A stretch of 57,423 nucleotides of DNA from IMG/VR virus record IMGVR_UViG_3300042561_000852, positions 1-57,423 of that record; one strand, written 5' to 3'. The notes beneath the pieces were generated by a model. The model searched no databases, was not told the origin of the DNA, and saw only the letters and a list, made by a program, of their open reading frames with translations. Source of the stretch: a virus (Duplodnaviria > Caudoviricetes). The position numbers were made by a program, and so were the translations under genes. This document shows, piece after piece, positions 4,084-19,088 of this stretch; position 1 is the stretch's first letter; each line of letters opens with the position of its first letter.

Positions 4084-5523
4084 ATGGCCGGCATCTTTCA
4101 AAGCATGCTCTACGGCATGAATCAGGCTCGCTCAGAGCAGCGCCAGCGCCGCGAGGACGAGTATGTCGAGGGCGAACGCGCGTATCAGCAGGAGCGCCGC
4201 GGCGTCACCGACCAGCGCGAGGACACCAGTTGGCAGGACAGCCGCGAAGATCGTCAATACGAGGTCGGCGTGCAGCGCCCGCTGCAGACCGAATCCGCGA
4301 AGATGGGCGTGCAGTCGCAGCGCTTCGCCGTGGGCCGCCAGCCGGTCGAAGCGCAGCAGTCCGATGCGAAGTTCCAGCAGGGCATGGTCGCGGGCAATCT
4401 GGCGAACCAGGCCGCGAGCTTTCAGGTCGCGCGCCAGCCGATCGAGGCTCGCCAGCAGGACGCGCGTTTCGGCATGGACATGCAGGGCGCACAGCAAGGG
4501 GTGGTCGCGCGCCAGCTGCAGATCGGCAGCGCCCAGCGTGCGGCGCAGATCGAGGAAGCACAGCAGCCCGACAAGCTCGACGAGATCCGGCTGGAGCGCG
4601 AGCGCCGCGGCGCCATGGACGCGCTGGCGAAGGCTGGACAGCAGTTCGTGCTCACCGGCATGCAGGGTGACAAGCAGAAGGCTGCTCAGCTGATCAATCA
4701 GACCTGGGCCCAGGCCACGGACGACCCCGACGGCGATGCCGGCGTGCGCGTCAACGAGCAGGGCCAGTATTACCTCGAAGGCCCTGACGGCAGGCCTGTG
4801 CTGATGCTGGGCGACGAGGACCAGGTGATGCAGTACGCATTCCAGTTCCTCAGTGATCCGACGACCTTCGCGCAGAGCCGGCAGGCGACCTATGCGGCGC
4901 GCGCGAATGCGCAGGCCAAGGAGGCCGAGGCGCGCGCGACCAACCCGCAGCGCTTCGTCGAGACGATGCAGCAACCGGATGGCACGGTGGCAATGGTCGA
5001 CCGCGTCACCGGCACGGCGCGCTCCGTCACCGATGCCGAAACCGGCAAGCCAGTGCGCGGCGCAGTCGACGGCCGCGCCGGACAGATGCCGGCGCGACTG
5101 CAGGAAGTCGAGGCCGTCGTGGCTCGCATGCGTCCGACGGAAGGCGAGAGCGATGACGACCGCTGGATGCGCGCGTATTCGATGGTCACCAGCCGCGCCG
5201 GGCTCGACCCGGATCAGGCTGCGGCCGACTTCTACGAGACGGTGATGCGCGGGCTGCTGAAGCCCGACCTGACCGGCCGCATCACGCCCGAGGCGGCCCA
5301 GAACGCCCAACAGCAGGCCGCGCAGCTGACCGACGACTTCCGCGCGCGATTCCTGTCTGGCCAGAAGTCGGCCAGCGGCCTGAGCGGCGGCCAAGCTCCG
5401 GCTTCACCAGCGAGCGCGCCTGCGGCGCAGACCCAAGAGAAGCCGGTCCGCACCGGCACCGATCCGGCCACCGGCCGCCGTGTCGGCGAGTTCCCTGACG
5501 GAAGCATCCGCTTCATCGACTGA
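4084..5523 (+). CDS. Internal virion/DNA ejection protein
   Basis: Gln/Ala-rich helical protein in the ejection gene cluster; typical codon bias. Confidence 0.7.
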   Translation: MAGIFQSMLYGMNQARSEQRQRREDEYVEGERAYQQERRGVTDQREDTSWQDSREDRQYEVGVQRPLQTESAKMGVQSQRFAVGRQPVEAQQSDAKFQQGMVAGNLANQAASFQVARQPIEARQQDARFGMDMQGAQQGVVARQLQIGSAQRAAQIEEAQQPDKLDEIRLERERRGAMDALAKAGQQFVLTGMQGDKQKAAQLINQTWAQATDDPDGDAGVRVNEQGQYYLEGPDGRPVLMLGDEDQVMQYAFQFLSDPTTFAQSRQATYAARANAQAKEAEARATNPQRFVETMQQPDGTVAMVDRVTGTARSVTDAETGKPVRGAVDGRAGQMPARLQEVEAVVARMRPTEGESDDDRWMRAYSMVTSRAGLDPDQAAADFYETVMRGLLKPDLTGRITPEAAQNAQQQAAQLTDDFRARFLSGQKSASGLSGGQAPASPASAPAAQTQEKPVRTGTDPATGRRVGEFPDGSIRFID

Positions 5524-5540
5524 TTGCCAAGGAAGGCACC

Positions 5541-8500
5541 GTGACCAATCCGCTGAATCCGGGCTCGATCCAATGGGACACCGATGTAAAGCCGGCCGCG
5601 CCGGCGCCGAGCGCTATCCGCTGGGATGACGATGCTCCAGCCGACCAGAAGACTGGCGCGGGCCCTTCGTGGGACAAGCCGAGCACTTCGGCCGACGTCA
5701 CCCGGACTTGGGGCGAGGCAGCGACCGACACCCTGACCGGCATCGGACAAGCGGGCCTGAGCTCGATTTCCGGCGTGGTTCGCGGAATCAACGATCGAGC
5801 CCCTGGCGCTGCTGAAGCGGAGCGAGAAAGCGGCTTCGTGGCTGGCCTACTCATGGACGTTGGCGGCAAGGTCTACGAGGCCGGGCTTGGCGCCCAGAGA
5901 GCGCTTGGCCAGCTGGCTGGAAACCCGTATGTGATCAACGACGCAAACCGTGGGCTGCAGGAGATCAACGCGCGCCGCGCTGCTTCCGCGCCTGAAGACC
6001 TGAAGCGCGCCAAGGGCGCGGAAGACTTCGCCGGTTTCCTCGACGAGCGCGCAGCCCGCGTGCCGGAAGTGCAATCCGAGAAAGCAAGGCTGATCGCGAG
6101 CGAAATGGGGCAGTTGACGCAGGCCGAAGGCTTGGGTGATCAGGCCTTTGCCACCATTGACTACTTCGCCAGCCCGTTCCTACGCGGCGACCTGTCGACC
6201 GGCGGCGCGCGGGTTTCGAAGATCATGGAAAGCCTGATCCCGTCGCTTGCTGCTGGCGGCATCGCGGCGAAAGCGGTCGGCGCAGCTGGCGCTGGTGCTG
6301 GAATCCAGACTGCGGCCCAGCTCGGTACGATGTCGGTCATGGAAGGCGGCGGCGCGGCCGAAGGCGCCCGCGGCGAGGTGCTGAACACTCCGATCGAATC
6401 CCTGCAGTCAGCGCCCGAGTTCCAGGCGGCGCTGCGCATGACTGGCGGCGACCCGATCCGAGCTCGCGCGCTTCTGGCGGATCAGGCAGCGTCGATCAGC
6501 TTCGGTCTTGGCACTGCTGCTGCTGGCGCAACAATGGGCCTCGGACAAGTCTTCGGCGCCAACGTTGCAGAACAGGCGGTGCGCGAGGGTGTCGGCTCGC
6601 TTGCCACTGGCGCCGGCGTCCGTCAGGCGCTGCTGGGCGTGGCCGGCGCCACCGGAAAGGAGTTCGCCAGCGAGTTCGCCCAAGGCGCGAGCAACCAGGC
6701 CGCGCAGAACGTGGGCGTCACTGCCACCGGCGCGAGCGACAGCCTCGGCCGCGGCGTAGTGGCCGCCGGCATCATGGAAGGCATCGCCGGCGCTGGCAGC
6801 GGCGCAGCTGCGCAGGGTGCGGCCGAAGTCTCGAAGCGCCTCCGGCCGATTTTCGACGGCGAGGATCTTCTGGGCGGATCCAATGTTCAGACGGGCGACC
6901 CTGGCGCAGCGCAGCCCGGCGGCCTGAACCTGCCGGATGACCCTGCGGCGGCGCCGATCACCACGGCCGAAGTCGTCGCCCTGCGCGATCAGCAGCTGTC
7001 CGCCTTGCAGGCCAAGGCCAATGGCCGACCGGATCAGACCGTCGTCGACCCGGTCACCGGCAAGCCGGTCACGGTGCGCGGCGAGCCGCCGCAGCCGCTG
7101 AGCGAGGCCGAGCGGCAAATGCTCGAGTTCTTGCAGAAGTACGCCGACAGTCCGGACAAGCTGGCGCGCTCGCTGGGTCGTCGACTGGATGACTCTGCGG
7201 CCCCGCAGGCTGGCCCCGCTGCTGCGCCAGCACCAGCAGCGGCCCCGAGCGCTGCCGCCCAGCAGCCCCCGGCCGCGCCAGCTCCGCAACCCTCCCAGGC
7301 AGCGCCGCAGCCTGCAGCCGAGCCGGAGCAGCAGCCCGCCCAGGGCGTGCCGACGATGGTCACGCAGCGCATGAAGGCGCAGCTGCGCGAGCGCGGGTTC
7401 ACCGACCAGCAGATTCGCGCGATGACCCCGCAGGCCGCGTGGGACGCGATCAACAGCGGTGCCCAGGCGGCGCCGCAGGCGCAGGCCGCACAGCAGCAGC
7501 CGGCGCCCGCACCCTCTGCGCCTGTCGGCACCGTCGCCGCTGCCCTGCAGCCGCAGACCGCCGATGACCTGTTGCTCGACCGGGCCGCTGCCGAACTGCA
7601 GGGCATGGACGAAACCCCGCCGATCGCCGGGCCCGTCGCGATCGAACCCCAGACCGAGGAAGTCCGCAATGAAGAAGTCCAGCAAGTACCCAATGTCCAA
7701 CCCGCCCCCGCCGAAGTCGCAGGGCAAGGGCTGCAAGGGCAAGAAGAAGTAGCACCGGCGCCAGCCAGCGCCCCGCAGACAGGGGTTGTCGCGGCGGCGC
7801 TGGCGGCCCAATCCGAGCCGGCTGACCCCGATGCTGTCGAGGGTCAGCTTCCGGCCGAAAGCACGTTTGCTGCTGGGCGCGCTGAAGACGTGCCGACCGA
7901 GCGCGCGCCCGAGAGCTTCATCCCGCAAGTGCTGTCCGAAATCGGCTGGCTGGAGAAGGGCGGGCGGATGATCCGCGACCCGAGCACGGCCATTGGCGCG
8001 AGCTCGCAAGCCGAGATTGACCCTGAGCGGGGCGACGTCGTCGGTCGCACGAAGTGGATCGGCAAGCCATCGGCAGACGGAAGGGAGTCGCTTTTCTGGC
8101 GCATGCGCCCCGACCAGAGCTTGAGCGAGTCCGAAGCAACGGCGGCGGTTCAAAAGTGGCGCGAGGGCCGCAAGCTGGGCAAGCGCCAGCAGGCGTTCAT
8201 CGACTACATGCAGAAGGCTGCCCGCGACTATGCGGAGCAGTGGAACACCGAGCGCACGGAGACGCTTCGCGCGATCGTCGAGCTCGAAGCCGAGGGTATC
8301 GTCGAGGAGCGCGACGAGCTGCGCGCTGCTGTGCGCCCTAACCTGAGCCCCGAGGACGAGCGCGAAGCCCTGCAGCTGGATGACCTTCTGCGCCGCGCGG
8401 CCGACGCTGGCGCGACACGCGATCAGCTGTTGGATATTCTGACCAGCCAGCCCGAGCCGCAGCAGGCCCGGACACTCTGGCACTTCATCAAGACCCAGGA

Positions 8501-11500
8501 GCGCGACCGTGGCACTGACCAAGCAGGACCGAGCGAAGCTGCTGGACTTCAGCCTGAAGCAAGCGGCCGAGGGCAAGCCGAGTCTGATCGAGCAGGCGAA
8601 GCAGCGCCACGCGGCGCAGAAGCAGAGCCAGCCGCTGCCCCCGCCGCCGATCCCCGCGCCGAAGGGCTGACGCTCTCCGCGCCGGCCGCGCCGGCAGTCT
8701 CACGGCAGGCCGCGCCGCCCTCGCAGCAGGGCGGCTTGTTCGCGCCCCCGACCCGCGGCGAAGTCCTGGCCGGCGAGCGCAAGCGACGCGACGACGAGCG
8801 CGACGGCAAGAACGCCACCGGCCGCACCGACATGATGGCCGGCGATGGCGAGCTGTTCGCCGGGCCGCGGCCGGAGCAGGCCGATGTTGAGCAGGCGATT
8901 GCTGCCGAGCAAGTCGCCGAGCGCCCGAAGCCCTGGACGGTCAGTTCGTCGGAGTGGATGACTTCAGAGCGAGCCGAGATCGACGCAGCACGCGCTAGCG
9001 AAGACGCTGAAATCCCGAGGTTGCGTGCTCGTGTCGAATACAACCGCAATCAGCTACGCGGCCGGATGCCCAAAACTGACCGTGCTCGGCTTGAGCAGCT
9101 GGTGGATGATGACGAGTTCCGAATCTTGCAGCTTTCATCAAGGCCGCTCGATCCGGATGGGTTCGACATCACTCCGGCGCGTCATCGCCGCATCGTCGAG
9201 AGCGCCATGCGGCGCGGCGAATCCATCCCGGCAGAAGTGTTTGCGGAGTATCCGGATCTCGCAGCCGAAGCACAGTCGGCTCCTCCCTCGCAGGGGGAAA
9301 AGGTCGAGGCTGCGCCTGACTCCCCTGTTGTTCCGCCTGGTGTGCTGGACGCCCCTGCAAATCAGCTTGTTTCTCGTCTGAACAAACTGGTGGAGAAGCG
9401 CGAGAAGTGGAACCTCGCGCACATGCAGAAATACCGAGACGGAAGCGCAACCAGAGCGCAGACCACCACTCACAGCGCGCGAATCGCAGACCTCAACGAG
9501 CAAATCAAAGAGCTGAGAGACGCGATTGCGGCCGAGAAGTCGGTTTCCCCCTCGCAGGGGGAAAAGGTCAAGGCTGCGCGCCAGCCCCTCGAAAACGCGA
9601 CGGCACCAGACGCCGAACAAGAATCAGACCCGGTCATCACCGAGACCCAGGCCCGCCAAGAAATCGAGTGGATCGACATGGGCACTCAGGGCGGCGTCAA
9701 GTCGCTCCGCTTGCGCTTCCGCGGCATGGCTTACGGCGACCTGGAAAAGTCCGGCAAGGGCCGATGGATCATCGAGGGCAGCGGCGAGTCGTTCGTCGGT
9801 CTGGCCGAAGCCAAGCGCGCTGTTGCGGATACCGCCATCGAGCGGCTGATCGCGGATGGGTATGTCGAGCGCGCGCCTGCGGTCGAGGCTGCGCGCCAGC
9901 CCTCCGCAAACACCATTTTCACCGAAGACGCCGCCGAGAAGGCGCGCGCCCGCCTGCGCGCAAAGCTGGGCCGCCCAAACTCCGGCATCGACCCGGAAAT
10001 GCTGCAGGACGGCATCACCCTGGCCGGCTACCACATTGAGCGCGGCGCGCGGACGTTCGCCGCCTACGCTCGCGCAATGGTCGAGGACATGGGCGACGCT
10101 GTGCGCCCATTCCTCAAGAGCTGGTATCTAGGCGTAAAGTTTGACCCGCGCGCGGCTTCGATCGCGTCGGAAATGGACAGCGCCGCCGCCGTTGAGTCGG
10201 CCGACGCCAATCAGGAGTTCGGCGATGTACCAAGTTCCCCCGGAGACGTGGCAGGAGCTGGCCAGTCAGGGCCGGCTGCGGCATCCGACGTGGCAGAAGC
10301 TGATGCCGCTGCCGGTGGAGAAGCTGCTGCCGGCGCTGGACAGCCTAGTGGACGAGTGGGAGCAGGAGCACCCGGAGCGCGCGGTACGCGCGGCCCTGCT
10401 GGTGGCGCCGCTGCTGGTCGAGCGGGCCGCGATCAGCGCGTTCCTGCGCAGCAGCCCGATGGGCGAGAGCCTGCGGCCAGCGATGCCGGAGCTGCTGACG
10501 GTCGAGGAAGCCGTGGCGATGGCGGATCAGGAGTTCAGGCTGAGCGCGACGGAGCGCGAGGCGCTACGGAAGCTGCTGCGCGAGCACGAGGCGACCGCGA
10601 CAAGCTGACCCAGCAGCGCGCGGCCGAGTCGATCCCGGTCAGGCTGGGCGACATCGAGAACATTCGCGCGACCCTGCCGTATCTTCTGGAGGGCCAGCAG
10701 GACGACGTCGCCAAGGCCGAAGCGCGATTCGCCAAGCCTGACGGCTACGGCATGCTGTTCACCAACGGCACCGGCACCGGCAAGACCTTCACCGGGCTAG
10801 GCATCGTCAAACGCTTCCAGCGGCAGGGCAAAACCAACGTCCTGATCGTCGCGCCGTCCGACAAGATCATGTCGGATTGGGTCAAGAGCGGCATTCCGCT
10901 GGGCCTGGACATCACGCAGCTGGCCAGCACGTCCGACGCCGGCCGCGGCATCGTGGTCACTACCTACGCGAACCTGGGCCAGAACGATGCCCTCGCAAAG
11001 CGTGAGTGGGATCTGATCGTGGCCGACGAGGCCCATTACCTCATGCGCAGCGCCGATGGCGAGAGGACGGCCGCGCTCGATGCCCTGCGCGCGATCACCC
11101 TGCACCCGGATGGCTACATGCAGCGCACCAACATGCTGCATCGCGAGCTGGTGGACCGTGGCCGCGATTTGTCGGATCAGGCGAAGCGTGCCCGCATGTC
11201 GGACGATCAGCGCGATTGGTTCCGCGCGAAGGGCCTGGAGGAACAGGCGTCCGCCGCATTCCGCGAGCTGGACGCGCGCCGCAAGGAAGTGCAGGCCGAC
11301 GTGATGGCGAAGCAGGGCGCCTCGCGCACGCGCGCTGTGTTCCTGTCTGCGACCCCGTTCGCCTATGAGAAGACCGTGGATTGGGCGCAGGGCTATCTGT
11401 TCACCTACCCGGAGTCGCAGGGCGGCGGCTACAACTCGCCGGACTCCTTCGGCGCCTTCATGATGTCCAACTTCGGCTACCGCATGCGCTACGGGAAGCT

Positions 11501-14500
11501 GACGGCGCCCGAGGCTGGCGTCGACAGCGGGCTCATGCAGCGCATGTTCAACACGCGCCTCAAGCGTGAGGGCGTGCTGTCTGGCCGGCGCCTGGATGTG
11601 GCCGCCGACTACAGCCGCAACTTCGTGCTGGTCGAGTCGGCCATCGGCCGCCGCATTGATCAGGCCTTGGAGTGGCTGCGCGAGAACGACGGCACCCGCG
11701 AGATTTCCGACAAGCTGCGCGAGTCCTTCGACTACCTCGCGCGCCGGTATACCCTCGAAGCACTGAAGGCGCGCGAGTCGGTCGCGCTGATCCGCGAGCA
11801 CCTGGCGCTTGGCCGCAAGGTCGTGGTGTTCCACGACTACAAGAAGGGCGGCGCGCGCAACCCCTTCGACTTCGACGCCGGCAGCGTCGGCCCCACCGAA
11901 GCACAGACCATCGAGCAGTTCCGCGCCGAGTTCGGCGACCTGATTGAAGGCATGCGCGGGCTGATCTCGCCGATCGACCTGCTGCAGCGCGAGTTTCCCG
12001 ACCTGCTGCTGTTCAACGGCGACGTATCGCCGAAGAACCGCCGCGCCAATGTCGACACCTTCAACGACGACAGCACCGGGCCGCGCGTGATCTTGGTGCA
12101 GACCGATGCAGGCAAGGAGGGAATCAGCCTGCACGACACCACGGGCGAGCATCAGCGCGCGCTGATCAACCTGGGCATGCCGACCAAGCCGACAGACCTG
12201 ATCCAGCAGGAGGGGCGCATCTACCGCACCGGACAGGTCAGCAACGCGATTTTCAGCTATCTCAACACCGGCACGAGCTGGGAGCGCGCGACGTTCGCGC
12301 AGACCATCGCCGGTCGCGCCAGCGCCGCCGAGAACCTGGGCATGGGCGAGGAAGCGCGCGCCCTGAAGGACTCGCTGGTGCAGGCCTTCGAGGACAGCGC
12401 GCAGCTGCGCCCCGGCTACGAGGGCGAAGGCACCGGCGGCAAGGCGGCCGACGCTGCGGCCGCGCGCATGCTGACCGAGCACGACCGCGCTGTCTCGCTC
12501 TACTACGCCAACCAGAAGAAGACCCAGCGCACCAAGAGCGCCGAGGGCACCGACTACTTCGCGACGCCGGAGCCCGTTGGCCTGGCGATGGTGCGGATGG
12601 CTGACATCCGTCCGGGCGAGTCTGCGCTTGAGCCCAGCGCAGGCCACGGCGCCATCGCGCGTTGGTTCGGCGACACGGTGAAGAAGACCGCGGTGGAGCC
12701 AAGCCCGGAGCTTGCGAGCCGTCTTGCGCTGTCCTTCGACGGTCGCATTGTGGATGGGCGTTTCGAGTCGCTTGACCTGGTCAACAAGTTCGACGCCATC
12801 GTGATGAATCCGCCTTTCGGCACCGCGGGGCGCACTGCCGTGGATCACGTCGCCAAGGCTGCGAAGCATCTTCGCGAGGGTGGTCGCATCGTCGCGCTGA
12901 TTCCGACCGGGCCGGCTGCGGATAAGAAGTTCGATGCGTGGCTCTACGAGCAGGACGACAAGGGGCGCGTGGTGCACCCCGACCTGCACCTGGTCGCAAC
13001 CATCGAGCTGCCGGCCGTCACCTTCGAGCGCGCCGGAACCAATGTGCGCACTCGGATCGTGGTCGTCGACAAGCTGCCGGCAGATGTAATGCAGTTGGCA
13101 CAGCAGGATCGCGACCTTTCGAGCGCCGAGACGATCAAGGAGCTGTTCGATCGCGTCGAAAATCTGGAGATTCGCGCTCGCACCAGACCGGCTGAGCCTG
13201 AAGCCGAGACCGCGCCAGCACCAGCACCGCAGACAGAGCGCAAAGCGAAGGCAGAGTCGAGGGATGCGGCGCGCGATACGGCCAAGGCCGCAGGCGTCGC
13301 CCCCACAGGCGAGCCGATCGTCACGCACATCACGGGCAAGGGCAAAGAGCTGGTCGGAGTCGTGCGCACGGGCATCACCAAGGCGCAGGCACAGGCGATC
13401 GACGCCTACACCTTCGCCAAGAACGGCGGCTGGTTCATCCGCGTGGAGCATCTGAAGCCGGCGGGCAACTTCAGCCGACCCCGCAGCGCTGCATTGCCGG
13501 CGGCCGTCGTCGATCAGACGCAAACCCCCGAGTTCCGCCGCTGGTTCGGTAACAGCAAGGTGGTGGATGCCGAAGGGCGGCCGTTGGTGGTGTATCACGG
13601 GACGACCTTCGACTTTGAGGCCTTCAAGACCGGCAAGGCCAAGAAGGGAAACGAACTGCCTTTCGGTGCTCACTTTACCCCTAGCCCGGACATTGCCTCA
13701 CAATTCGCAGATAGCGAATCGGGGAATGTCCTGCCTGTTTACCTGTCGATCCTCGCCCCCCTTGATCTCACTCCGGAGGCTAATGAGTTCGCAGTTGTCG
13801 GCACCCCGGAGGGGATGCTTGCCGAAGAGGCCATAAGGGCCAACAAGCAAGAGCCGAAGCCGTACAGGCGATGGCAGTACCAGCCTTGGACGCAGGGAAC
13901 ACCGAAGGGTGACGATCTTGTTCTTCCGCTCAAGGCTGAGCTTGACGTTTTGAGGGGCGACAGGGGGCGCGCGATCATTCAAAAGGCTGGATACGACGGC
14001 GCGGTCTATTCCGCGACCTACTATCGCGGCCCCTTCGGATCTGGCGGCAGGACGCTTGACCGGAGCTACATCGCCTTCCGCCCCGAGCAGATCAAATCCT
14101 CCACCGGCAACCGCGGCACCTTCGACCCAGCCGACCCGCGCATCGCCTACAGCCAGCCAATGCCCGGCGACCGCATCCCCATGGGCCCGCTGCGTTCCGA
14201 CGCAGCCATGCGTTTCGCCGTCGCGGCAGCGCTGGACGGCTGGGCCGGGCAGAAGCCAATCGTGCGCGTCGTGCGCACCGCTGCCGAGCTGCCGGCCGAC
14301 GCGAAGATGGGCGAGGGCTGGCAGACCGCCGAGGGCTACTTCGACGGTGCTGATGGCGTCTGGCTGGTCACCGAGAACCTGGCCGACCCGCAGCGAGCGC
14401 TCGAAGTCCTGCGGCACGAGGCCGTGGGTCACTTCGGCGTCGAGCGCATCGCGGGCGCGTCCTGGCCGAGCATCCTTGCTGGCGTCGAGTCCTTCCGCGG

Positions 14501-17500
14501 GCAGCGCCGCAACAGCATGTCGAAGCCGATGGCGGCAGCGCTGGCCGAGGCAGAAGCGCGCTACGAGGCCGCAGCCAGCGATGACCCGCTGCTGTTCGCG
14601 AAGGAGCTGCTTGCGGTCATGGCCGAGACGGGCACGCGGGCGACGTGGATGGATCGCATGCTCTCGCAGCTGCGCGCCTTCCTGCGCAAGACTGGTCTGA
14701 TCGGCGATGCCTTCAGTGAGGCCGAGCTGCGCAATGTCCTGTCTGGCGCGTTCCGGCTGGTCGAGCGCGGCGGCAGCCTGACCGCTGGCGCTCCGGTGGC
14801 GGCTGGCGGCATGCAGTCAATCCGGCCCGACGACGTCGCCGCCTACATCCTGCGGATGATGGGCCAGAGCGACGCCGACCTGTTCCGCTACCCGAAGTCG
14901 GACAGCACCAGCTTTGCGAAGGTGGTGAAGGACGTCAGCAAGAACGCGATCGCCGCAGTGAAGCTGGGCGAGGTCGAAGCCAACTTCACCGAGAACCTGG
15001 ACGACATGCTGCCGGCGGTGAAGTGGGGGCTTCGCCTGCCGGACGGCTCGCAGGCCTTCGTCTACATCGAGCAGCCGAGCCCATACACGCCCGACAGCGG
15101 CCTGCGCATGTTCATCGACGCCAGCGCCGGCAACGCAGGCGCGAGCCTGGGCAGCGCCGCCTATGCCGCGCTGTTCCAGTGGGCACTGAACACCGGCCAC
15201 ACCTTCATCGGCGACCCCAACGGGCTGAGCACCGAGGCCCTGCTTCGGCGCACCGAGCACATGCTTTCGGCCGCCCTGAAGCACGGCACCACGCGAATGA
15301 TGGCGCCGCACGCGCGCCAGGTGGACCCCATGGACAAGAAGTGGGGCCCGTCGCAGGATTGGGCGCACCCGCTGGAGTGGACGGACGGCGACGACGTGGC
15401 GAACGTCACGGCGCTGATCCGCACCAGTGTGGAGAATCACCGCGCACTGCTGCAGGGGACCGAGGCCGATGGCGCCGTATATCGTCTTTCCGATGGACAG
15501 TTCATTGGCGCTGGCGGACAGCCTCTCACCGACGAGGGACTGCGACGCGCTGCTGCAACTGCTGGAGCGCGATTCCGAGCGAGTGGCCGCTTTGCCGGTC
15601 CAGAGTCCCGAGCGGCAGCTGTTGGCGGCTCTACGGTGGCGCGCACGCTGGTTCTCGGCTCGCTGCTCGACGGATCGACTGGATCCACGGGACAACGACG
15701 TGAGCTACTGGCTGATCTTGCAGAGCGGCTGTCCGCTCAACGCCTGACCTATGACCGCGCGCGGGGGCTGTTCTACAGCCGGCCGGGCGCATCCCGCCTT
15801 CAGCAAAACATGAGCACCGATCGGTCCGAAGCAATCAGCCAGATCCTCGACGCAATCAAGCGGGATGGCAGGGTCGAAGGCTGGGGGCTCCGGGTTATCG
15901 ACGTGGACCCCGATGTTGGGAGCGATGGCTTCCTGCCGCCAAGCTTCGTGTGGGATAACGGGGATCAGACTGAGGAAACCCTAAATGGAACTTCTGCAGT
16001 CGGCATCCGAGAGCTTTCAGAGTCCGGCATCGATAAGGCGCTGCGCCTCCTTGGTGTCGGCGGAAGCGGTGAAAATGGTTTCTACTTCGGTGATCGCGTC
16101 CTGTTGGTCAACGGCGAACCGAAGGGCTCGGGGGAGGATGCTGGCGAGGTGATCCTTGCGGAGGCCGAGCTGATCGGTCAGTGGAAAAAGTCGGGCAGCG
16201 GCCCCAACGAGATCTTGCCCAATCCGCCTGGCCTTTTCAGCCAGCCCCGCCTCGGCCCCCAGCTTCCGCAGAATCTCGGCCAAGGCCCTGCAGCGTCCGC
16301 CGCCCGCGGCGCGCTGCTCGCTGTCCGCCAGCGCGTCCAGCAGCTCACCAGCCGCGAGACGATCGACCGCCTGCTCTACGAGTTTCAGGACAAGTTCGTC
16401 GACCTGAAGCGCATTCAGGCGCACATCCGAGAGTCCGGCGGCACCGTGTCGGATCTCAATGACGCCTACCTCGGCGAAGAGCTGTATCACTCCCGAGTCA
16501 TGGCGCGGCACGAGCGATTCATGGACTCGGAGCTGAAGCCGCTGCTGGCCGACCTGAACGCGGGCGGCTTTACCATCGAGCAGTTCGAGCAGTTCCTGCA
16601 CGCCCGGCATGCGCCCGAGGCGAACGCGGCGCTCATGAAGCGCAACCCTGACGCCAAGACGGTGCAGGACGAGCGCGATCGCACGGAGCAGGCTGTTCGC
16701 ACACTGCGCGTGCAGCTTCAGCAGGCGCAGAGCGCCGGCACCGCCACGCGCGCGATTGAGCAGGCCTTGGAGCTGGCCGAGCTGGAGCGCGACCGCTGGA
16801 AGCGCACGCAGCCGTTCAAGGGCACTAACACCGAGCGGGCGATGCTGTCGGGCATGTCGGACGCCGACGCGGCCGCGATCATGGCCGCACTGTCGCCGGC
16901 TGATCGCGCCAAGATGGACGCCCTGGCCGCGCGCGTGGATGCGATCAACGCGAAGACGCTCGACCAGCTGGAGCGCTACGGGCTCATGTCGCGCGCCGAC
17001 CTTGACGCCTGGCGCCAGACCTATCAGCACTACGTTCCGCTGCATCGCGACGAGGCCAACCCGGACAGCGTCAGCCATCCGACCGGCTCGGGCTTCAGCG
17101 TCCGCGGCGATGCGGCGAAGTCGCGCACCGGCTCGGCGAAGGCGAAGGTGACCAACATCCTCGCCCACATCGCCATGCAGCGCGAGGCGGCGATCACGCG
17201 CGGCGAGAAGAACGCGGTGGCGAAGCGCCTGTATGTCCTGGCCGGCCAGAACCCGGACCCGGACCTGTGGACGCTGGACAAGGCGCCGACGATCACCCGG
17301 CTGGATCCGGCAACGGGCACCGTGCGATCGATGCCGGACCCGACTTACCGGCAGCAGCCGAATGTGGTCATGGTGCGGATTGCCGGCGAGGACCGCGCCA
17401 TCGTCTTCAGCGAGCGCAACCCGCGCGCGCTGCGGCTGGCCGAGTCTCTGAAGGGCCTCGATGTCGACGACCTGCACGTCGTCTTGGGCTGGTTCTCGAA

Positions 17501-19088
17501 GGCGACGCGCTGGTTCGCCAGTGTCAACACCCAATACAACCCGGTCTTCGGCATCATCAACCTGCTGCGCGACGTGCAGGGCTCTGCGCTGCAGCTGTCG
17601 ACCACACCGCTGAAGGGCCGAGAGCTCCAGGTGGTGCGCCGCATCCCGGCGATGCTGCGCTCGATTTACCGCGAGCGCCGCGGCAAGGGCACGGCCAGCC
17701 CCGATGATGCGCGCCTGCAGCGCCTGTGGGACGACATGCGCATGACCGGCGGCGTCACTGGCTACCGCGACCTGTTCCGTGACCCGATGGAGCGCGCGAA
17801 TGCGATCGAGGCCGAGCTGCGCAAGTCCGAGCGCGGCATGGCCAGCCGCGCCGCGCACGCCGTGGTCGACTGGCTGAGCGACTACAACGAGGCGATCGAG
17901 AACGCGACGCGCCTTGCGGTCTACGAGCAGGGCCTGGCCATCGGCATGACCAAGGAGCGCGCAGCCAGCGTCGCGAAGAACATCACGGTCAACTTCAACC
18001 GGAAGGGCCGTCAGGCGCGCGAGCTGGGCGCCCTGTTCGCCTTCTTCAACGCGGCAGTGCAGGGCACCACGCGCATGGTCGAGACGCTGGCCGGGCCCCG
18101 CGGCCGCGCCATCATGGCCGGCGGCGTTGCGCTGGGCTTCGTGAACAGCCTGATCGGCCTGGCCGTGATGGGCGGCGACGAGTGGGAGAAGATTCCCGAC
18201 CACGTCAAGGAGCGCGCGGTCATCATCCCGATCAGCGGCAGCGACTACATCAGCATCCCGATGCCGCTGGGCTACCACGTCTTCCCGAACATTGGCCGCA
18301 TCGCTGCGGAGTGGATGACCGGCGGCGCGGACAAGTCCATTGCCGGCGGCGCTGCTGAACTGCTGCGGATCGGTGTCGATGCCTTCAACCCGCTCGGCGG
18401 CACGTCGACTCCGCTGCAGATGATCATGCCGACGGCACTGGACCCGATCGCGGCCCTGGCCGAGAACAAGGACTGGACCGGCCGCCCGATCTACCGCGAG
18501 GACTTCAGCAACACTGACCCGACGCCGGGATTCACGCGGGCAAAGGACAGCGCCAGCCTGCCGGCAAAGGTCATGGCGTGGGGCGCCAACGCGCTGAGCG
18601 GCGGCGACGACTATCAGCCCGGCGCCTTCAGCCCGACGCCCGATCAGATCGACTACATCATGGGCCAGCTGACCGGCGGCCTCGGGCGCGAGATCCTGAA
18701 AGCGCAGACCACGCTGGCCGCGCCCTTCAGCGACGACGAGCTGCCGGCGTACAAGATCCCGCTGGTGTCCCGCCTGTACGGCAACACCCGCGGCGAGGCC
18801 GGCGAGAGCCAGCGCTTCTACGAGTCGCTGCGCGAGCTGAACATCATCGAGCGCCGGATCAAGGGCATGGCGCAGGCTGGCGAGGACGTGGATGCCTACA
18901 TGGCGGCCGAGCCCCTGGCGGGTCTGGTCGGCATGGGTACGCGATCGCAGTCGGTGGTGCAGCGCCTGCGCTCCGCCCAGCGTCGAGCCAGTGAGGCCGG
19001 CGACCGCGATCAGGCCGAGGCCATCCGCCTGCAGATCGCCGAAGTGATGGCTGACCTCAACCGCGAAGTGCGCGCAGCCAAGCAATGA
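5541..19088 (+). CDS. Giant DarB-like polyvalent virion protein (4515 aa): SF2/strawberry-notch-type helicase, N6-adenine MTase, ART-PolyVal-like, HExxxH, GNAT-like and LPD38-like domains
   Basis: GTGTGKT 10767-10787, DEAH 11025-11036, SAT; EPSAGHG and NPPF 12807-12818; FRRWFGNSKVVD...VYHGT...QIKSSTGNRGTFD; HEAVGH 14415-14432; C-terminal AKNITVNFNRKG...FFNAAVQG. Confidence 0.9.
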   Translation: MTNPLNPGSIQWDTDVKPAAPAPSAIRWDDDAPADQKTGAGPSWDKPSTSADVTRTWGEAATDTLTGIGQAGLSSISGVVRGINDRAPGAAEAERESGFVAGLLMDVGGKVYEAGLGAQRALGQLAGNPYVINDANRGLQEINARRAASAPEDLKRAKGAEDFAGFLDERAARVPEVQSEKARLIASEMGQLTQAEGLGDQAFATIDYFASPFLRGDLSTGGARVSKIMESLIPSLAAGGIAAKAVGAAGAGAGIQTAAQLGTMSVMEGGGAAEGARGEVLNTPIESLQSAPEFQAALRMTGGDPIRARALLADQAASISFGLGTAAAGATMGLGQVFGANVAEQAVREGVGSLATGAGVRQALLGVAGATGKEFASEFAQGASNQAAQNVGVTATGASDSLGRGVVAAGIMEGIAGAGSGAAAQGAAEVSKRLRPIFDGEDLLGGSNVQTGDPGAAQPGGLNLPDDPAAAPITTAEVVALRDQQLSALQAKANGRPDQTVVDPVTGKPVTVRGEPPQPLSEAERQMLEFLQKYADSPDKLARSLGRRLDDSAAPQAGPAAAPAPAAAPSAAAQQPPAAPAPQPSQAAPQPAAEPEQQPAQGVPTMVTQRMKAQLRERGFTDQQIRAMTPQAAWDAINSGAQAAPQAQAAQQQPAPAPSAPVGTVAAALQPQTADDLLLDRAAAELQGMDETPPIAGPVAIEPQTEEVRNEEVQQVPNVQPAPAEVAGQGLQGQEEVAPAPASAPQTGVVAAALAAQSEPADPDAVEGQLPAESTFAAGRAEDVPTERAPESFIPQVLSEIGWLEKGGRMIRDPSTAIGASSQAEIDPERGDVVGRTKWIGKPSADGRESLFWRMRPDQSLSESEATAAVQKWREGRKLGKRQQAFIDYMQKAARDYAEQWNTERTETLRAIVELEAEGIVEERDELRAAVRPNLSPEDEREALQLDDLLRRAADAGATRDQLLDILTSQPEPQQARTLWHFIKTQERDRGTDQAGPSEAAGLQPEASGRGQAESDRAGEAAPRGAEAEPAAAPAADPRAEGLTLSAPAAPAVSRQAAPPSQQGGLFAPPTRGEVLAGERKRRDDERDGKNATGRTDMMAGDGELFAGPRPEQADVEQAIAAEQVAERPKPWTVSSSEWMTSERAEIDAARASEDAEIPRLRARVEYNRNQLRGRMPKTDRARLEQLVDDDEFRILQLSSRPLDPDGFDITPARHRRIVESAMRRGESIPAEVFAEYPDLAAEAQSAPPSQGEKVEAAPDSPVVPPGVLDAPANQLVSRLNKLVEKREKWNLAHMQKYRDGSATRAQTTTHSARIADLNEQIKELRDAIAAEKSVSPSQGEKVKAARQPLENATAPDAEQESDPVITETQARQEIEWIDMGTQGGVKSLRLRFRGMAYGDLEKSGKGRWIIEGSGESFVGLAEAKRAVADTAIERLIADGYVERAPAVEAARQPSANTIFTEDAAEKARARLRAKLGRPNSGIDPEMLQDGITLAGYHIERGARTFAAYARAMVEDMGDAVRPFLKSWYLGVKFDPRAASIASEMDSAAAVESADANQEFGDVPSSPGDVAGAGQSGPAAASDVAEADAAAGGEAAAGAGQPSGRVGAGAPGARGTRGPAGGAAAGRAGRDQRVPAQQPDGREPAASDAGAADGRGSRGDGGSGVQAERDGARGATEAAARARGDRDKLTQQRAAESIPVRLGDIENIRATLPYLLEGQQDDVAKAEARFAKPDGYGMLFTNGTGTGKTFTGLGIVKRFQRQGKTNVLIVAPSDKIMSDWVKSGIPLGLDITQLASTSDAGRGIVVTTYANLGQNDALAKREWDLIVADEAHYLMRSADGERTAALDALRAITLHPDGYMQRTNMLHRELVDRGRDLSDQAKRARMSDDQRDWFRAKGLEEQASAAFRELDARRKEVQADVMAKQGASRTRAVFLSATPFAYEKTVDWAQGYLFTYPESQGGGYNSPDSFGAFMMSNFGYRMRYGKLTAPEAGVDSGLMQRMFNTRLKREGVLSGRRLDVAADYSRNFVLVESAIGRRIDQALEWLRENDGTREISDKLRESFDYLARRYTLEALKARESVALIREHLALGRKVVVFHDYKKGGARNPFDFDAGSVGPTEAQTIEQFRAEFGDLIEGMRGLISPIDLLQREFPDLLLFNGDVSPKNRRANVDTFNDDSTGPRVILVQTDAGKEGISLHDTTGEHQRALINLGMPTKPTDLIQQEGRIYRTGQVSNAIFSYLNTGTSWERATFAQTIAGRASAAENLGMGEEARALKDSLVQAFEDSAQLRPGYEGEGTGGKAADAAAARMLTEHDRAVSLYYANQKKTQRTKSAEGTDYFATPEPVGLAMVRMADIRPGESALEPSAGHGAIARWFGDTVKKTAVEPSPELASRLALSFDGRIVDGRFESLDLVNKFDAIVMNPPFGTAGRTAVDHVAKAAKHLREGGRIVALIPTGPAADKKFDAWLYEQDDKGRVVHPDLHLVATIELPAVTFERAGTNVRTRIVVVDKLPADVMQLAQQDRDLSSAETIKELFDRVENLEIRARTRPAEPEAETAPAPAPQTERKAKAESRDAARDTAKAAGVAPTGEPIVTHITGKGKELVGVVRTGITKAQAQAIDAYTFAKNGGWFIRVEHLKPAGNFSRPRSAALPAAVVDQTQTPEFRRWFGNSKVVDAEGRPLVVYHGTTFDFEAFKTGKAKKGNELPFGAHFTPSPDIASQFADSESGNVLPVYLSILAPLDLTPEANEFAVVGTPEGMLAEEAIRANKQEPKPYRRWQYQPWTQGTPKGDDLVLPLKAELDVLRGDRGRAIIQKAGYDGAVYSATYYRGPFGSGGRTLDRSYIAFRPEQIKSSTGNRGTFDPADPRIAYSQPMPGDRIPMGPLRSDAAMRFAVAAALDGWAGQKPIVRVVRTAAELPADAKMGEGWQTAEGYFDGADGVWLVTENLADPQRALEVLRHEAVGHFGVERIAGASWPSILAGVESFRGQRRNSMSKPMAAALAEAEARYEAAASDDPLLFAKELLAVMAETGTRATWMDRMLSQLRAFLRKTGLIGDAFSEAELRNVLSGAFRLVERGGSLTAGAPVAAGGMQSIRPDDVAAYILRMMGQSDADLFRYPKSDSTSFAKVVKDVSKNAIAAVKLGEVEANFTENLDDMLPAVKWGLRLPDGSQAFVYIEQPSPYTPDSGLRMFIDASAGNAGASLGSAAYAALFQWALNTGHTFIGDPNGLSTEALLRRTEHMLSAALKHGTTRMMAPHARQVDPMDKKWGPSQDWAHPLEWTDGDDVANVTALIRTSVENHRALLQGTEADGAVYRLSDGQFIGAGGQPLTDEGLRRAAATAGARFRASGRFAGPESRAAAVGGSTVARTLVLGSLLDGSTGSTGQRRELLADLAERLSAQRLTYDRARGLFYSRPGASRLQQNMSTDRSEAISQILDAIKRDGRVEGWGLRVIDVDPDVGSDGFLPPSFVWDNGDQTEETLNGTSAVGIRELSESGIDKALRLLGVGGSGENGFYFGDRVLLVNGEPKGSGEDAGEVILAEAELIGQWKKSGSGPNEILPNPPGLFSQPRLGPQLPQNLGQGPAASAARGALLAVRQRVQQLTSRETIDRLLYEFQDKFVDLKRIQAHIRESGGTVSDLNDAYLGEELYHSRVMARHERFMDSELKPLLADLNAGGFTIEQFEQFLHARHAPEANAALMKRNPDAKTVQDERDRTEQAVRTLRVQLQQAQSAGTATRAIEQALELAELERDRWKRTQPFKGTNTERAMLSGMSDADAAAIMAALSPADRAKMDALAARVDAINAKTLDQLERYGLMSRADLDAWRQTYQHYVPLHRDEANPDSVSHPTGSGFSVRGDAAKSRTGSAKAKVTNILAHIAMQREAAITRGEKNAVAKRLYVLAGQNPDPDLWTLDKAPTITRLDPATGTVRSMPDPTYRQQPNVVMVRIAGEDRAIVFSERNPRALRLAESLKGLDVDDLHVVLGWFSKATRWFASVNTQYNPVFGIINLLRDVQGSALQLSTTPLKGRELQVVRRIPAMLRSIYRERRGKGTASPDDARLQRLWDDMRMTGGVTGYRDLFRDPMERANAIEAELRKSERGMASRAAHAVVDWLSDYNEAIENATRLAVYEQGLAIGMTKERAASVAKNITVNFNRKGRQARELGALFAFFNAAVQGTTRMVETLAGPRGRAIMAGGVALGFVNSLIGLAVMGGDEWEKIPDHVKERAVIIPISGSDYISIPMPLGYHVFPNIGRIAAEWMTGGADKSIAGGAAELLRIGVDAFNPLGGTSTPLQMIMPTALDPIAALAENKDWTGRPIYREDFSNTDPTPGFTRAKDSASLPAKVMAWGANALSGGDDYQPGAFSPTPDQIDYIMGQLTGGLGREILKAQTTLAAPFSDDELPAYKIPLVSRLYGNTRGEAGESQRFYESLRELNIIERRIKGMAQAGEDVDAYMAAEPLAGLVGMGTRSQSVVQRLRSAQRRASEAGDRDQAEAIRLQIAEVMADLNREVRAAKQ
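7669..7752 (+). CDS. Nested +1-frame basic peptide MKKSSKYPMSNPPPPKSQGKGCKGKKK (27 aa)
   Basis: GAGGA SD 7656-7660, 8 nt before ATG; host frame here is acidic linker. Confidence 0.45.
   Translation: MKKSSKYPMSNPPPPKSQGKGCKGKKK
8509..8670 (+). CDS. Nested +1-frame small protein MALTKQDRAKLLDFSLKQAAEGKPSLIEQAKQRH... (53 aa)
   Basis: AGGAG SD 8497-8501, GTG start; host frame switches to A/T-ending codons and low-complexity sequence over this span. Confidence 0.6.
   Translation: MALTKQDRAKLLDFSLKQAAEGKPSLIEQAKQRHAAQKQSQPLPPPPIPAPKG
9285..9903 (+). repeat. In-frame direct repeats (PSQGEKVxAA/VxAARQP) at 9285-9315, 9549-9588 and 9881-9903
   Basis: 31-bp copies with 1 mismatch 264 bp apart; third partial copy 315 bp further. 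Confidence 0.85.
10225..10608 (+). CDS. Nested +1-frame helical protein MYQVPPETWQELASQGRLRHPTWQKL... (127 aa)
   Basis: AGGAG SD 10213-10217; CTG/GAG-rich phage-typical codons; host frame reads as GCT/GGA/CGA-rich Gly-Ala-Arg junk over the same span. Confidence 0.8.
   Translation: MYQVPPETWQELASQGRLRHPTWQKLMPLPVEKLLPALDSLVDEWEQEHPERAVRAALLVAPLLVERAAISAFLRSSPMGESLRPAMPELLTVEEAVAMADQEFRLSATEREALRKLLREHEATATS
15469..15747 (+). CDS. Nested +1-frame protein MAPYIVFPMDSSLALADSL... (92 aa)
   Basis: Host frame shows A/T-ending codons (GCT GCT GCA ACT GCT GGA) while the +1 frame is open and Leu-rich; weak SD. Confidence 0.5.
   Translation: MAPYIVFPMDSSLALADSLSPTRDCDALLQLLERDSERVAALPVQSPERQLLAALRWRARWFSARCSTDRLDPRDNDVSYWLILQSGCPLNA

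Follow-up and report, generated by a model that had tools for sequence, protein, structure and literature searches.

A small gene predicted to be nested in the interdomain-linker DNA of a giant polyvalent-protein gene of tailed phages

Background

Can a phage protein be encoded by DNA that is at the same time read, in another frame, as part of a giant multidomain protein, and what kind of selection would then act on each of the two frames? This question is raised by the IMG/VR virus record IMGVR_UViG_3300042561_000852, a whole virus record of 57,423 bp (completeness 99%) which was analyzed over its whole length and is hereinafter called the window. Its largest gene (5541..19088, plus strand, 4515 codons) encodes a polyvalent (DarB-like) protein, and a much shorter open reading frame (ORF; 10225..10608, plus strand, 127 codons) lies wholly inside it on the same strand with an offset of +1. 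The original prediction, made from the letters of the sequence, had proposed that this inner ORF is a real gene for a small protein, a candidate regulator of the helicase-methyltransferase module. Comparison of the sequences of 41 loci strongly supports the first of these proposals: the ORF at 10225-10608 codes for a protein of its own, nested at an offset of +1 within the giant polyvalent gene, and its homologues show purifying selection on the nested frame, which answers the test that had been set for refuting the gene.

Results

The nested ORF and its relatives

The nested ORF extends from an ATG at 10225 to a TGA at 10606-10608 and is preceded, at a spacing of 7 nt, by a Shine-Dalgarno (SD)-like AGGAG (10213..10217, plus strand), all of these elements being present in the sequence as originally read. 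Pairing of the AGGAG site with a generic anti-SD is predicted at -6.9 kcal/mol, which is among the strongest 3.6% of positions across the surrounding 5 kb. Across the 34 distinct loci SD-like pairing with the generic anti-SD in the 17 nt upstream of the start is invariably at or below -4 kcal/mol (median -7.05), and in 27 of them it ranks among the strongest 10% of positions in the 5 kb around the start. The conceptual product of the window's ORF comprises 127 amino acids, including three tryptophans, has a pI of 5.1 and is predicted to be all-helical. Read in the frame of the giant gene (the host frame), the same DNA (10221..10607, plus strand) yields a linker rich in Ala, Gly, Arg and Asp, and this host-frame translation over the nested ORF reads GAGQSGPAAASDVAEADAAAGG... 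Coding bias changes frame just at the nested ORF: in 150-nt windows over 10240-10570 the G+C content of third codon positions (GC3) ranges from 0.92 to 0.96 for the nested frame and from 0.41 to 0.53 for the host frame, which shows 0.78-0.92 on both flanks. The proposal that the nested ORF has near-perfect phage codon usage calls for a correction: the third positions are G-skewed and T-depleted (G 0.68 vs 0.37 in the flanks; T 0.03 vs 0.11) and not simply those of the phage.

Searches for relatives recovered 41 loci in all, namely the window, three cultured phages, Ruegeria phage 45A6, 22 viral contigs, 10 bacterial genome contigs, two AT-rich viral contigs, a Vibrio phage and a plasmid-like record from Comamonas. 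In all 41 of these, which range from 38 to 68% GC, a homologous ATG-started ORF of 120-136 codons is found in the +1 frame inside a longer ORF. Translated nucleotide (tblastn) searches with the nested protein retrieved five records with 33-41% identity, which belong to Pseudomonas phage Skulduggery, Serratia phage Parlo and Klebsiella phage ZX1; every match lies beneath an annotated giant coding sequence (CDS) and is offset by 1 modulo 3 from the start of that CDS. A profile search added Ruegeria phage 45A6 with the same +1 arrangement, a scan of IMG/VR yielded the 22 loci in viral contigs (three of them duplicates), and a species-genome collection yielded 10 loci from Burkholderiales, Moraxellaceae and Methylococcaceae bins and a Comamonas isolate. 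Later scans contributed the two AT-rich viral contigs, Vibrio phage 1.232.O and the 57.7-kb Comamonas 'plasmid'. The nested gene is not annotated in any of the phage records that we inspected, and the whole records of Ralstonia phage GP4 and Sinorhizobium phage PBC5 contain no member of the nested family. In two loci from bacterial genome bins, L033 (host frame open only over 5199-6932) and L031 (3147-8981), the ORF bearing the nested gene is much shorter than elsewhere; these short containing ORFs represent either split giant genes or assembly frameshifts.

The arrangement can also be followed in other public sequencing runs, contigs from four of which (X3, X4, X7 and X8) were compared with the window. 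The X3 contig (10079-10950) covers both frame junctions with zero differences; two X4 contigs (9900-10369 and 10341-10642) cover one junction each, and the X8 contig (10239-10651) covers the 3' junction, again with zero differences. The X7 contig spans 9900-10950 with no indel at either junction, and its sole difference within the nested gene, G10575T, turns CTG into CTT, leaving the nested protein unaltered, and replaces Ala by Ser in the host frame. Since contigs of other public runs reproduce the junctions without indels, the nested arrangement is not an assembly artefact. Near the end of its matching part the X7 contig further has one base inserted behind 10914 and one deleted at 10918, two changes which compensate each other and alter one or two codons of the helicase region.

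Selection on the two frames

The analysis of selection used 24 distinct sequences. In 274 of the resulting 276 pairs amino-acid identity is higher in the nested than in the host frame (means 0.51 vs 0.35). Per site, the sequences differ by 0.39, 0.33 and 0.47 at the first, second and third positions of the nested codons, and this 3>1>2 pattern is the usual one for a coding sequence when read in the nested frame and the opposite of it when read in the host frame. The ratio of nonsynonymous to synonymous change (dN/dS), estimated by an OLGenie-style partition with bootstrap, is 0.32 for the nested frame (confidence interval 0.25-0.43) in the 55 pairs with at least 60% identity and 0.48 in all pairs; the corresponding values for the host frame over the overlap are 1.20 (0.96-1.56) and 1.33. 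In a control region of 600 codons past the nested stop the host frame has a dN/dS of 0.36 and a virtual +1 frame one of 0.89; the method therefore behaves properly, this helicase control giving the reverse pattern. These selection statistics are to be read with the reservations that the pairs share ancestry and are not independent and that the alignment was built in the nested frame, slightly favouring it, both of which weigh against the reading as a nested gene.

What the host frame does retain is its openness. When the codons of the nested protein, itself held fixed, were redrawn according to codon usage in the flanks, only 0-23% of the draws across the 24 loci left the host frame free of stops: the value is 7.8% for the window, at most 5% in 13 of the 24, and 0 of 3000 draws at each of three loci with 38-40% GC. 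The base composition shows how this is achieved. T makes up 0.02-0.15 of nested third positions vs 0.06-0.38 of third positions in the flanks, and at the AT-rich loci it drops to 0.07 at nested position 3 vs 0.36-0.38 in the flanks, with G being enriched. As nested position 3 coincides with host position 1, where TAA, TAG and TGA begin, the avoidance of T at this position is the main means by which stops are avoided in the host frame. In the two AT-rich loci L046 and L047 (39-41% GC) stops occur about every 16 codons in the +1 frame, which over 12 kb has no open stretch longer than the nested ORF. Both frames are accordingly under selection, of different kinds: the nested frame for its amino acids, and the host frame over the overlap for openness only, without constraint on its amino acids.

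Predicted structures and the protein family

AlphaFold2 modelling of the nested product from a 21-sequence alignment returned eight helices with a mean predicted local distance difference test score (pLDDT) of 91.8 and a predicted template modelling score of 0.83, in keeping with the globular helical protein with three tryptophans that had been foreseen. The host-frame translation of 9624-11057, modelled from a 20-sequence alignment, presents the opposite picture over the overlap: residues 200-314 (nt 10221-10565) have a pLDDT of 26-37 and no secondary structure, and in the same model the regions before and after them, a helical domain which we call domain X and a helicase lobe, reach 82-93. 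All 24 of the nested proteins for which properties were computed are acidic (pI 4.05-5.69, net charge -2 to -12.5), and none of these contains a hydrophobic segment.

An exhaustive profile search of 1.84 billion representatives retrieved 536 clusters at E<=1e-3, with 418 at the stricter limit of E<=1e-10, and the nested family, as delineated by these sequence matches, comprises at least 536 sequence clusters. Most members have 105-150 amino acids with the match starting at residue 1, and in nearly all of the best 150 the first residues of the called protein coincide with the start of the match. Among these best 150 matches, 18 listed members have 200-408 amino acids and none is longer than 408. 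A word-indexed search found 60 members, all named 'hypothetical protein' and none with a Pfam domain, and a word-indexed search for longer proteins (239-2000 amino acids) gave no match. Searches of Pfam, PHROGs, NCBIfam and PADLOC with the nested product found no family above threshold; the one Pfam hit, to DUF3482, stayed below it with 16.9 bits against a cut-off of 29.2. At the level of structure, Foldseek gave a best E of 1.0 against PDB and of 1.2 against BFVD, a wide VIA-align search with the nested fold peaked at Z 4.5 with no usable match, the PDB sequence profile search had a best E of 1.4, and two ESM Atlas queries returned no usable match. The lack of a fold match does not prove that the fold is new.

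The slot between domain X and the helicase

The nested gene occupies a well-defined position in the giant gene. Downstream of it lies an SNF2/ResIII-type helicase module (10698..12233, plus strand; Pfam ResIII at residues 1720-1837 and Helicase_C at residues 2156-2231 of the giant protein), whose Walker A motif NGTGTGKT is encoded by 10764-10787 in the giant frame. The measured distance of 53 codons from the nested stop to the start of Walker A agrees with the estimate of about 50 made beforehand. In all 20 aligned loci the motif TNGTGTGKT is invariant at about 50 codons after the nested stop, and the nested family is absent from both relatives that lack a helicase at this slot (GP4 and Bcep22), so that the link to the helicase module holds in terms of position. 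The 200 codons upstream of the nested gene are more variable: domain X (9900..10211 in the window, plus strand; pLDDT 82-93 in the AlphaFold2 model), a conserved helical domain without a family match in a Pfam search, is found in 11 of the 20 loci, and a variant of it in others. Domain X has DNA-level matches in 41 phage records and is also present in many giant genes without the nested family.

Certain free-standing members of the nested family are themselves fusions. P0124 (328 amino acids) and P0162 (283 amino acids) are 49% identical over their full length and combine a nested domain with a following domain X in the same frame, the domain X profile matching them with E-values of 4e-18 and 8.6e-22, respectively, and the C-terminal half of P0162 matching the window's domain X in BLASTP with an E-value of 1e-25. 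Likewise, P0012 (232 amino acids, from a cluster of 23) has the nested domain followed by the variant of domain X that precedes the nested gene in the locus L030 (E 3e-13). Scans of viral and metagenome collections for the DNA of P0124/P0162 and of P0175 gave no match, and a DNA scan with P0012 found only the known loci again over the nested part, along with L046 and L047. Because the two domains are fused in one chain in these proteins, the nested protein and domain X probably cooperate, to judge from the sequences, and the lead given by the fusions points to domain X as much as to the helicase.

A second, unrelated nested gene in the same slot

Bcep22, JC1, GP4 and their relatives also have domain X followed by a host-frame linker rich in Gly, Ala, Arg and Asp, and this linker contains a +1 ORF of 107-112 codons with an ATG and a strong SD. 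Its coordinates are 2778-3101 of L048 (Bcep22), 601-939 of L051 (JC1) and 2843-3166 of L027 (GP4); in L052-L055 it starts at 601. In all seven loci examined the ORF lies in the +1 frame inside an open host frame, and in the six for which the offset from the annotated CDS start was computed it equals 1 modulo 3. By tblastn it is present in 41 phage records (31 from Ralstonia and 10 from Burkholderia), and it is unannotated in the records that we saw. The hhalign comparison of this second nested family with that of the window gave a probability of 0.5%, i.e. no similarity, and the second nested gene leads into another part of the giant protein, not into a helicase. The two share their frame, the ATG, a strong SD, the slot after domain X and the composition of the linker, and they differ in sequence and in what comes next.

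In Sinorhizobium phage PBC5 (L026:2702-3148) a DarB-like CDS continues beyond domain X, without a change of frame, through a helical domain resembling TnpV (Pfam E 5e-4, which is below the cut-off) and ends there; it is followed by 1.6 kb of unannotated DNA (L026:3149-4779) and then by a second DarB-like CDS. The domain after X in PBC5 gave an E-value of 0.22 against the second nested family. This arrangement could represent an unfused state or old sequencing frameshifts.

The giant gene and its phage

The gene content of the window, with an integrase, a CI-like repressor, RecT and a DnaB-type helicase, is that of a temperate tailed phage, and the 57-kb record further encodes the small and large terminase subunits, a portal, a major head protein and an internal virion protein. 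Pfam searches with the giant protein detected LPD37 (3e-48), LPD38 (7e-45), ART-PolyVal (2e-23), ResIII, Helicase_C and a weak match to the methyltransferase family MTS. As these domains occur together in one chain, the giant ORF encodes a polyvalent protein as this term is used by Iyer et al. 2017; the giant genes of its relatives are annotated as 'DarB-like antirestriction' or 'PLxRFG protein'. Elsewhere in the giant ORF, at 15441-15741, 7611-7881 and 8451-8721, the GC3 of the host frame falls to 0.46-0.58 and that of the +1 frame climbs to 0.82-0.94, and the first of these segments contains an ATG-started +1 ORF of 92 amino acids (15469-15747). These segments are possible additional nested genes, or else low-complexity linkers.

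Discussion

Expression and function of the nested product

We consider it likely that the following account is correct as a whole: the nested ORF is a real embedded gene, both frames are selected, the product has its own initiation, and the gene was engulfed by its host gene. According to this account ribosomes would start internally on the mRNA of the giant gene, using the SD and ATG of the nested ORF, and the small protein would thereby be co-expressed with the giant one. The nested frame carries the amino-acid constraint and encodes a protein predicted to be compact, acidic and built of eight helices, and what the host frame makes of the same DNA is solely a spacer, predicted to be disordered, that separates domain X from the helicase. 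Several observations weigh against it. When the host frame of the window, at 67% GC, is resampled synonymously, the nested frame remains open in 87% of the cases, and the case for the gene rests on its relatives because the +1 frame of the window alone is not beyond chance; the SD is only middling in 7 of the 34 distinct loci; and a look-up of public runs containing this stretch listed no RNA runs.

As to function, we tentatively favour a dedicated partner subunit that docks on domain X beside the helicase, a role to which we would give somewhat less than an even chance. Such a partner might be a chaperone for assembly or packaging of the giant protein, or a brake on the helicase-methylase until ejection. 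The giant protein of the window may itself be packaged into virions and delivered, by analogy with gp69 of JC1 (see below). Set against a partner role are the order of the fusion proteins (nested domain, then X), which is the reverse of the gene order at the locus; the fact that P0124, P0162 and P0012 are known only from short contigs; and the absence of any fold or family match that assigns the nested product a function.

An alternative that accepts the nested gene as real holds that its product targets the host cell on its own, the giant protein playing no part, for instance as an acidic anti-defence protein or a DNA mimic, and that the linker merely offers free DNA. The acidity of all 24 members computed suits this proposal, as does the presence of an unrelated small gene in the same slot elsewhere, which is reminiscent of a general cargo site. 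The strict placement in the 20 aligned loci, with an X-type domain before the nested gene and the helicase after it, and the existence of in-frame fusions to X speak for a link to the giant protein instead, and we regard an independent action on the cell as unlikely; the lack of a match in PADLOC and the other libraries is neutral in this regard.

The main rival to internal initiation is a programmed +1 frameshift, by which ribosomes would produce a truncated isoform consisting of the N-terminal part of the giant protein and domain X with the nested domain as its C-terminus. PBC5, in which X continues in frame into a small helical end, demonstrates that such an architecture exists, and the avoidance of stops in the host frame would be needed under frameshifting too and does not separate the two mechanisms. 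However, the ATG is kept in 41 of 41 loci together with an SD-like motif, and in 17 of the 41 a stop in the nested frame occurs 0-12 nt ahead of this ATG, leaving almost no room for a shift site. Moreover, no common slippery heptamer is visible by eye near the start (A ATG TAC/CAG CAA GT), and the family members in databases begin at the nested Met. Taken with these features, frameshifting appears improbable as the source of the nested protein.

It might also be supposed that the nested frame is the ancestral frame of the giant gene, displaced by compensating frameshifts or assembly errors, and that no separate protein exists, since coding bias in an off-frame segment between in-frame flanks is precisely what such events would produce. 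This seems to us very improbable indeed in view of the same +1 offset, ATG and stop in all 41 loci over 38-68% GC, of the contigs from four other runs without an indel at the junctions, and of the best 150 database matches, the longest of which has 408 amino acids and among which no in-frame copy inside a giant protein is found. Finally, a chance open frame in GC-rich DNA, or conservation of an RNA or DNA signal, can practically be dismissed: the frame does stay open in most resamplings at 67% GC, yet it is also kept open in loci of 38-41% GC, for each of which the chance amounts to 0.6-0.8%, and the 3>1>2 position pattern, the dN/dS of 0.32-0.48, the confident fold and the 536 clusters all speak against it.

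Origin of the overlap

We propose that the embedded gene would once have been a separate small gene, which was engulfed when the genes flanking it fused by read-through in another frame. This origin fits with the observation that the inner frame is folded and constrained and the outer spacer is unconstrained, and engulfment is easy at high GC, where the off-frame is open in 8-23% of resamplings without selection. Against it stands the absence among the 41 loci of an unfused intermediate, i.e. a free-standing, non-overlapped copy between two genes. Alternatively, the gene may have been born within the linker.

Relationship to known systems

A close precedent for a phage gene within a gene is the Rz/Rz1 pair, the lambda-type embedded spanin genes, in which Rz1 lies wholly inside Rz in the +1 frame. 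The nested gene resembles it in being a small phage gene wholly inside a larger one on the same strand and in the +1 frame, with its own start signals and with both products presumably serving one process. In Rz/Rz1 both frames encode constrained functional segments, whereas the outer frame described here is an unconstrained disordered spacer and only the inner frame is folded; furthermore, the outer gene is not a lysis gene, being a 13.5-kb gene for a polyvalent virion protein, and there is no relation in sequence or fold. In the parts of the Parlo genome announcement covered by our survey, 'embedded spanin genes' are the only embedded genes mentioned (PMC6606913).

The giant protein has the hallmarks of the polyvalent proteins delineated by Iyer, Burroughs, Anand, de Souza and Aravind in 2017 (PMC5512222), with LPD37, LPD38, ART-PolyVal, an SNF2-type helicase and a methylase in a phage with portal and terminase genes. 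The terms 'overlapping' and 'frameshift' are absent from the text of that article, and genes hidden in linkers lie outside the concept as described there. An informative comparison is offered by DarB of phage P1, a large methylase-helicase which is packaged in the virion and needs the small helpers DarA, DdrA, DdrB, Hdf and Ulx (PMC9144972). The same source reports the DarB-like gp69 of the Bcep22-like phage JC1 in virions with 51 unique peptides and identifies no homologues of the P1 helpers in the phage group of JC1 (PMC9144972). The P1 helpers are ordinary separate genes, whereas the candidate helper proposed here lies inside the giant gene, and we liken P1 DarB to the giant protein by its description. 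Full-text literature searches, which covered main texts, turned up no account of genes embedded within those for DarB-like or polyvalent proteins.

Conclusions

Long and deeply conserved cases of a gene within a gene are few, and gene callers forbid such genes by design. The nested family is missing from every phage record examined because these programs exclude embedded genes, and its members in databases are solely unnamed fragments from short contigs. The overlap also illustrates a mode of persistence in which one frame carries the fold and the other is a disordered spacer that needs only to avoid stops.

With respect to the phages themselves, the nested product is a concrete candidate for a helper of the giant DarB-like or polyvalent virion proteins. 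A broader 'gene-in-linker' concept, which we offer as a speculation that is rather doubtful at present, would hold that giant injected polyvalent proteins carry the genes for their partners or antidotes in the DNA of their disordered linkers, that the nested protein, bound to domain X, maintains the helicase-methylase in a silent or packaging-competent state until ejection, and that unrelated small proteins were captured in the same slot across lineages. If true, such genes would constitute a general, unannotated layer of phage gene content, which arises when neighbouring genes fuse through a small gene lying between them.

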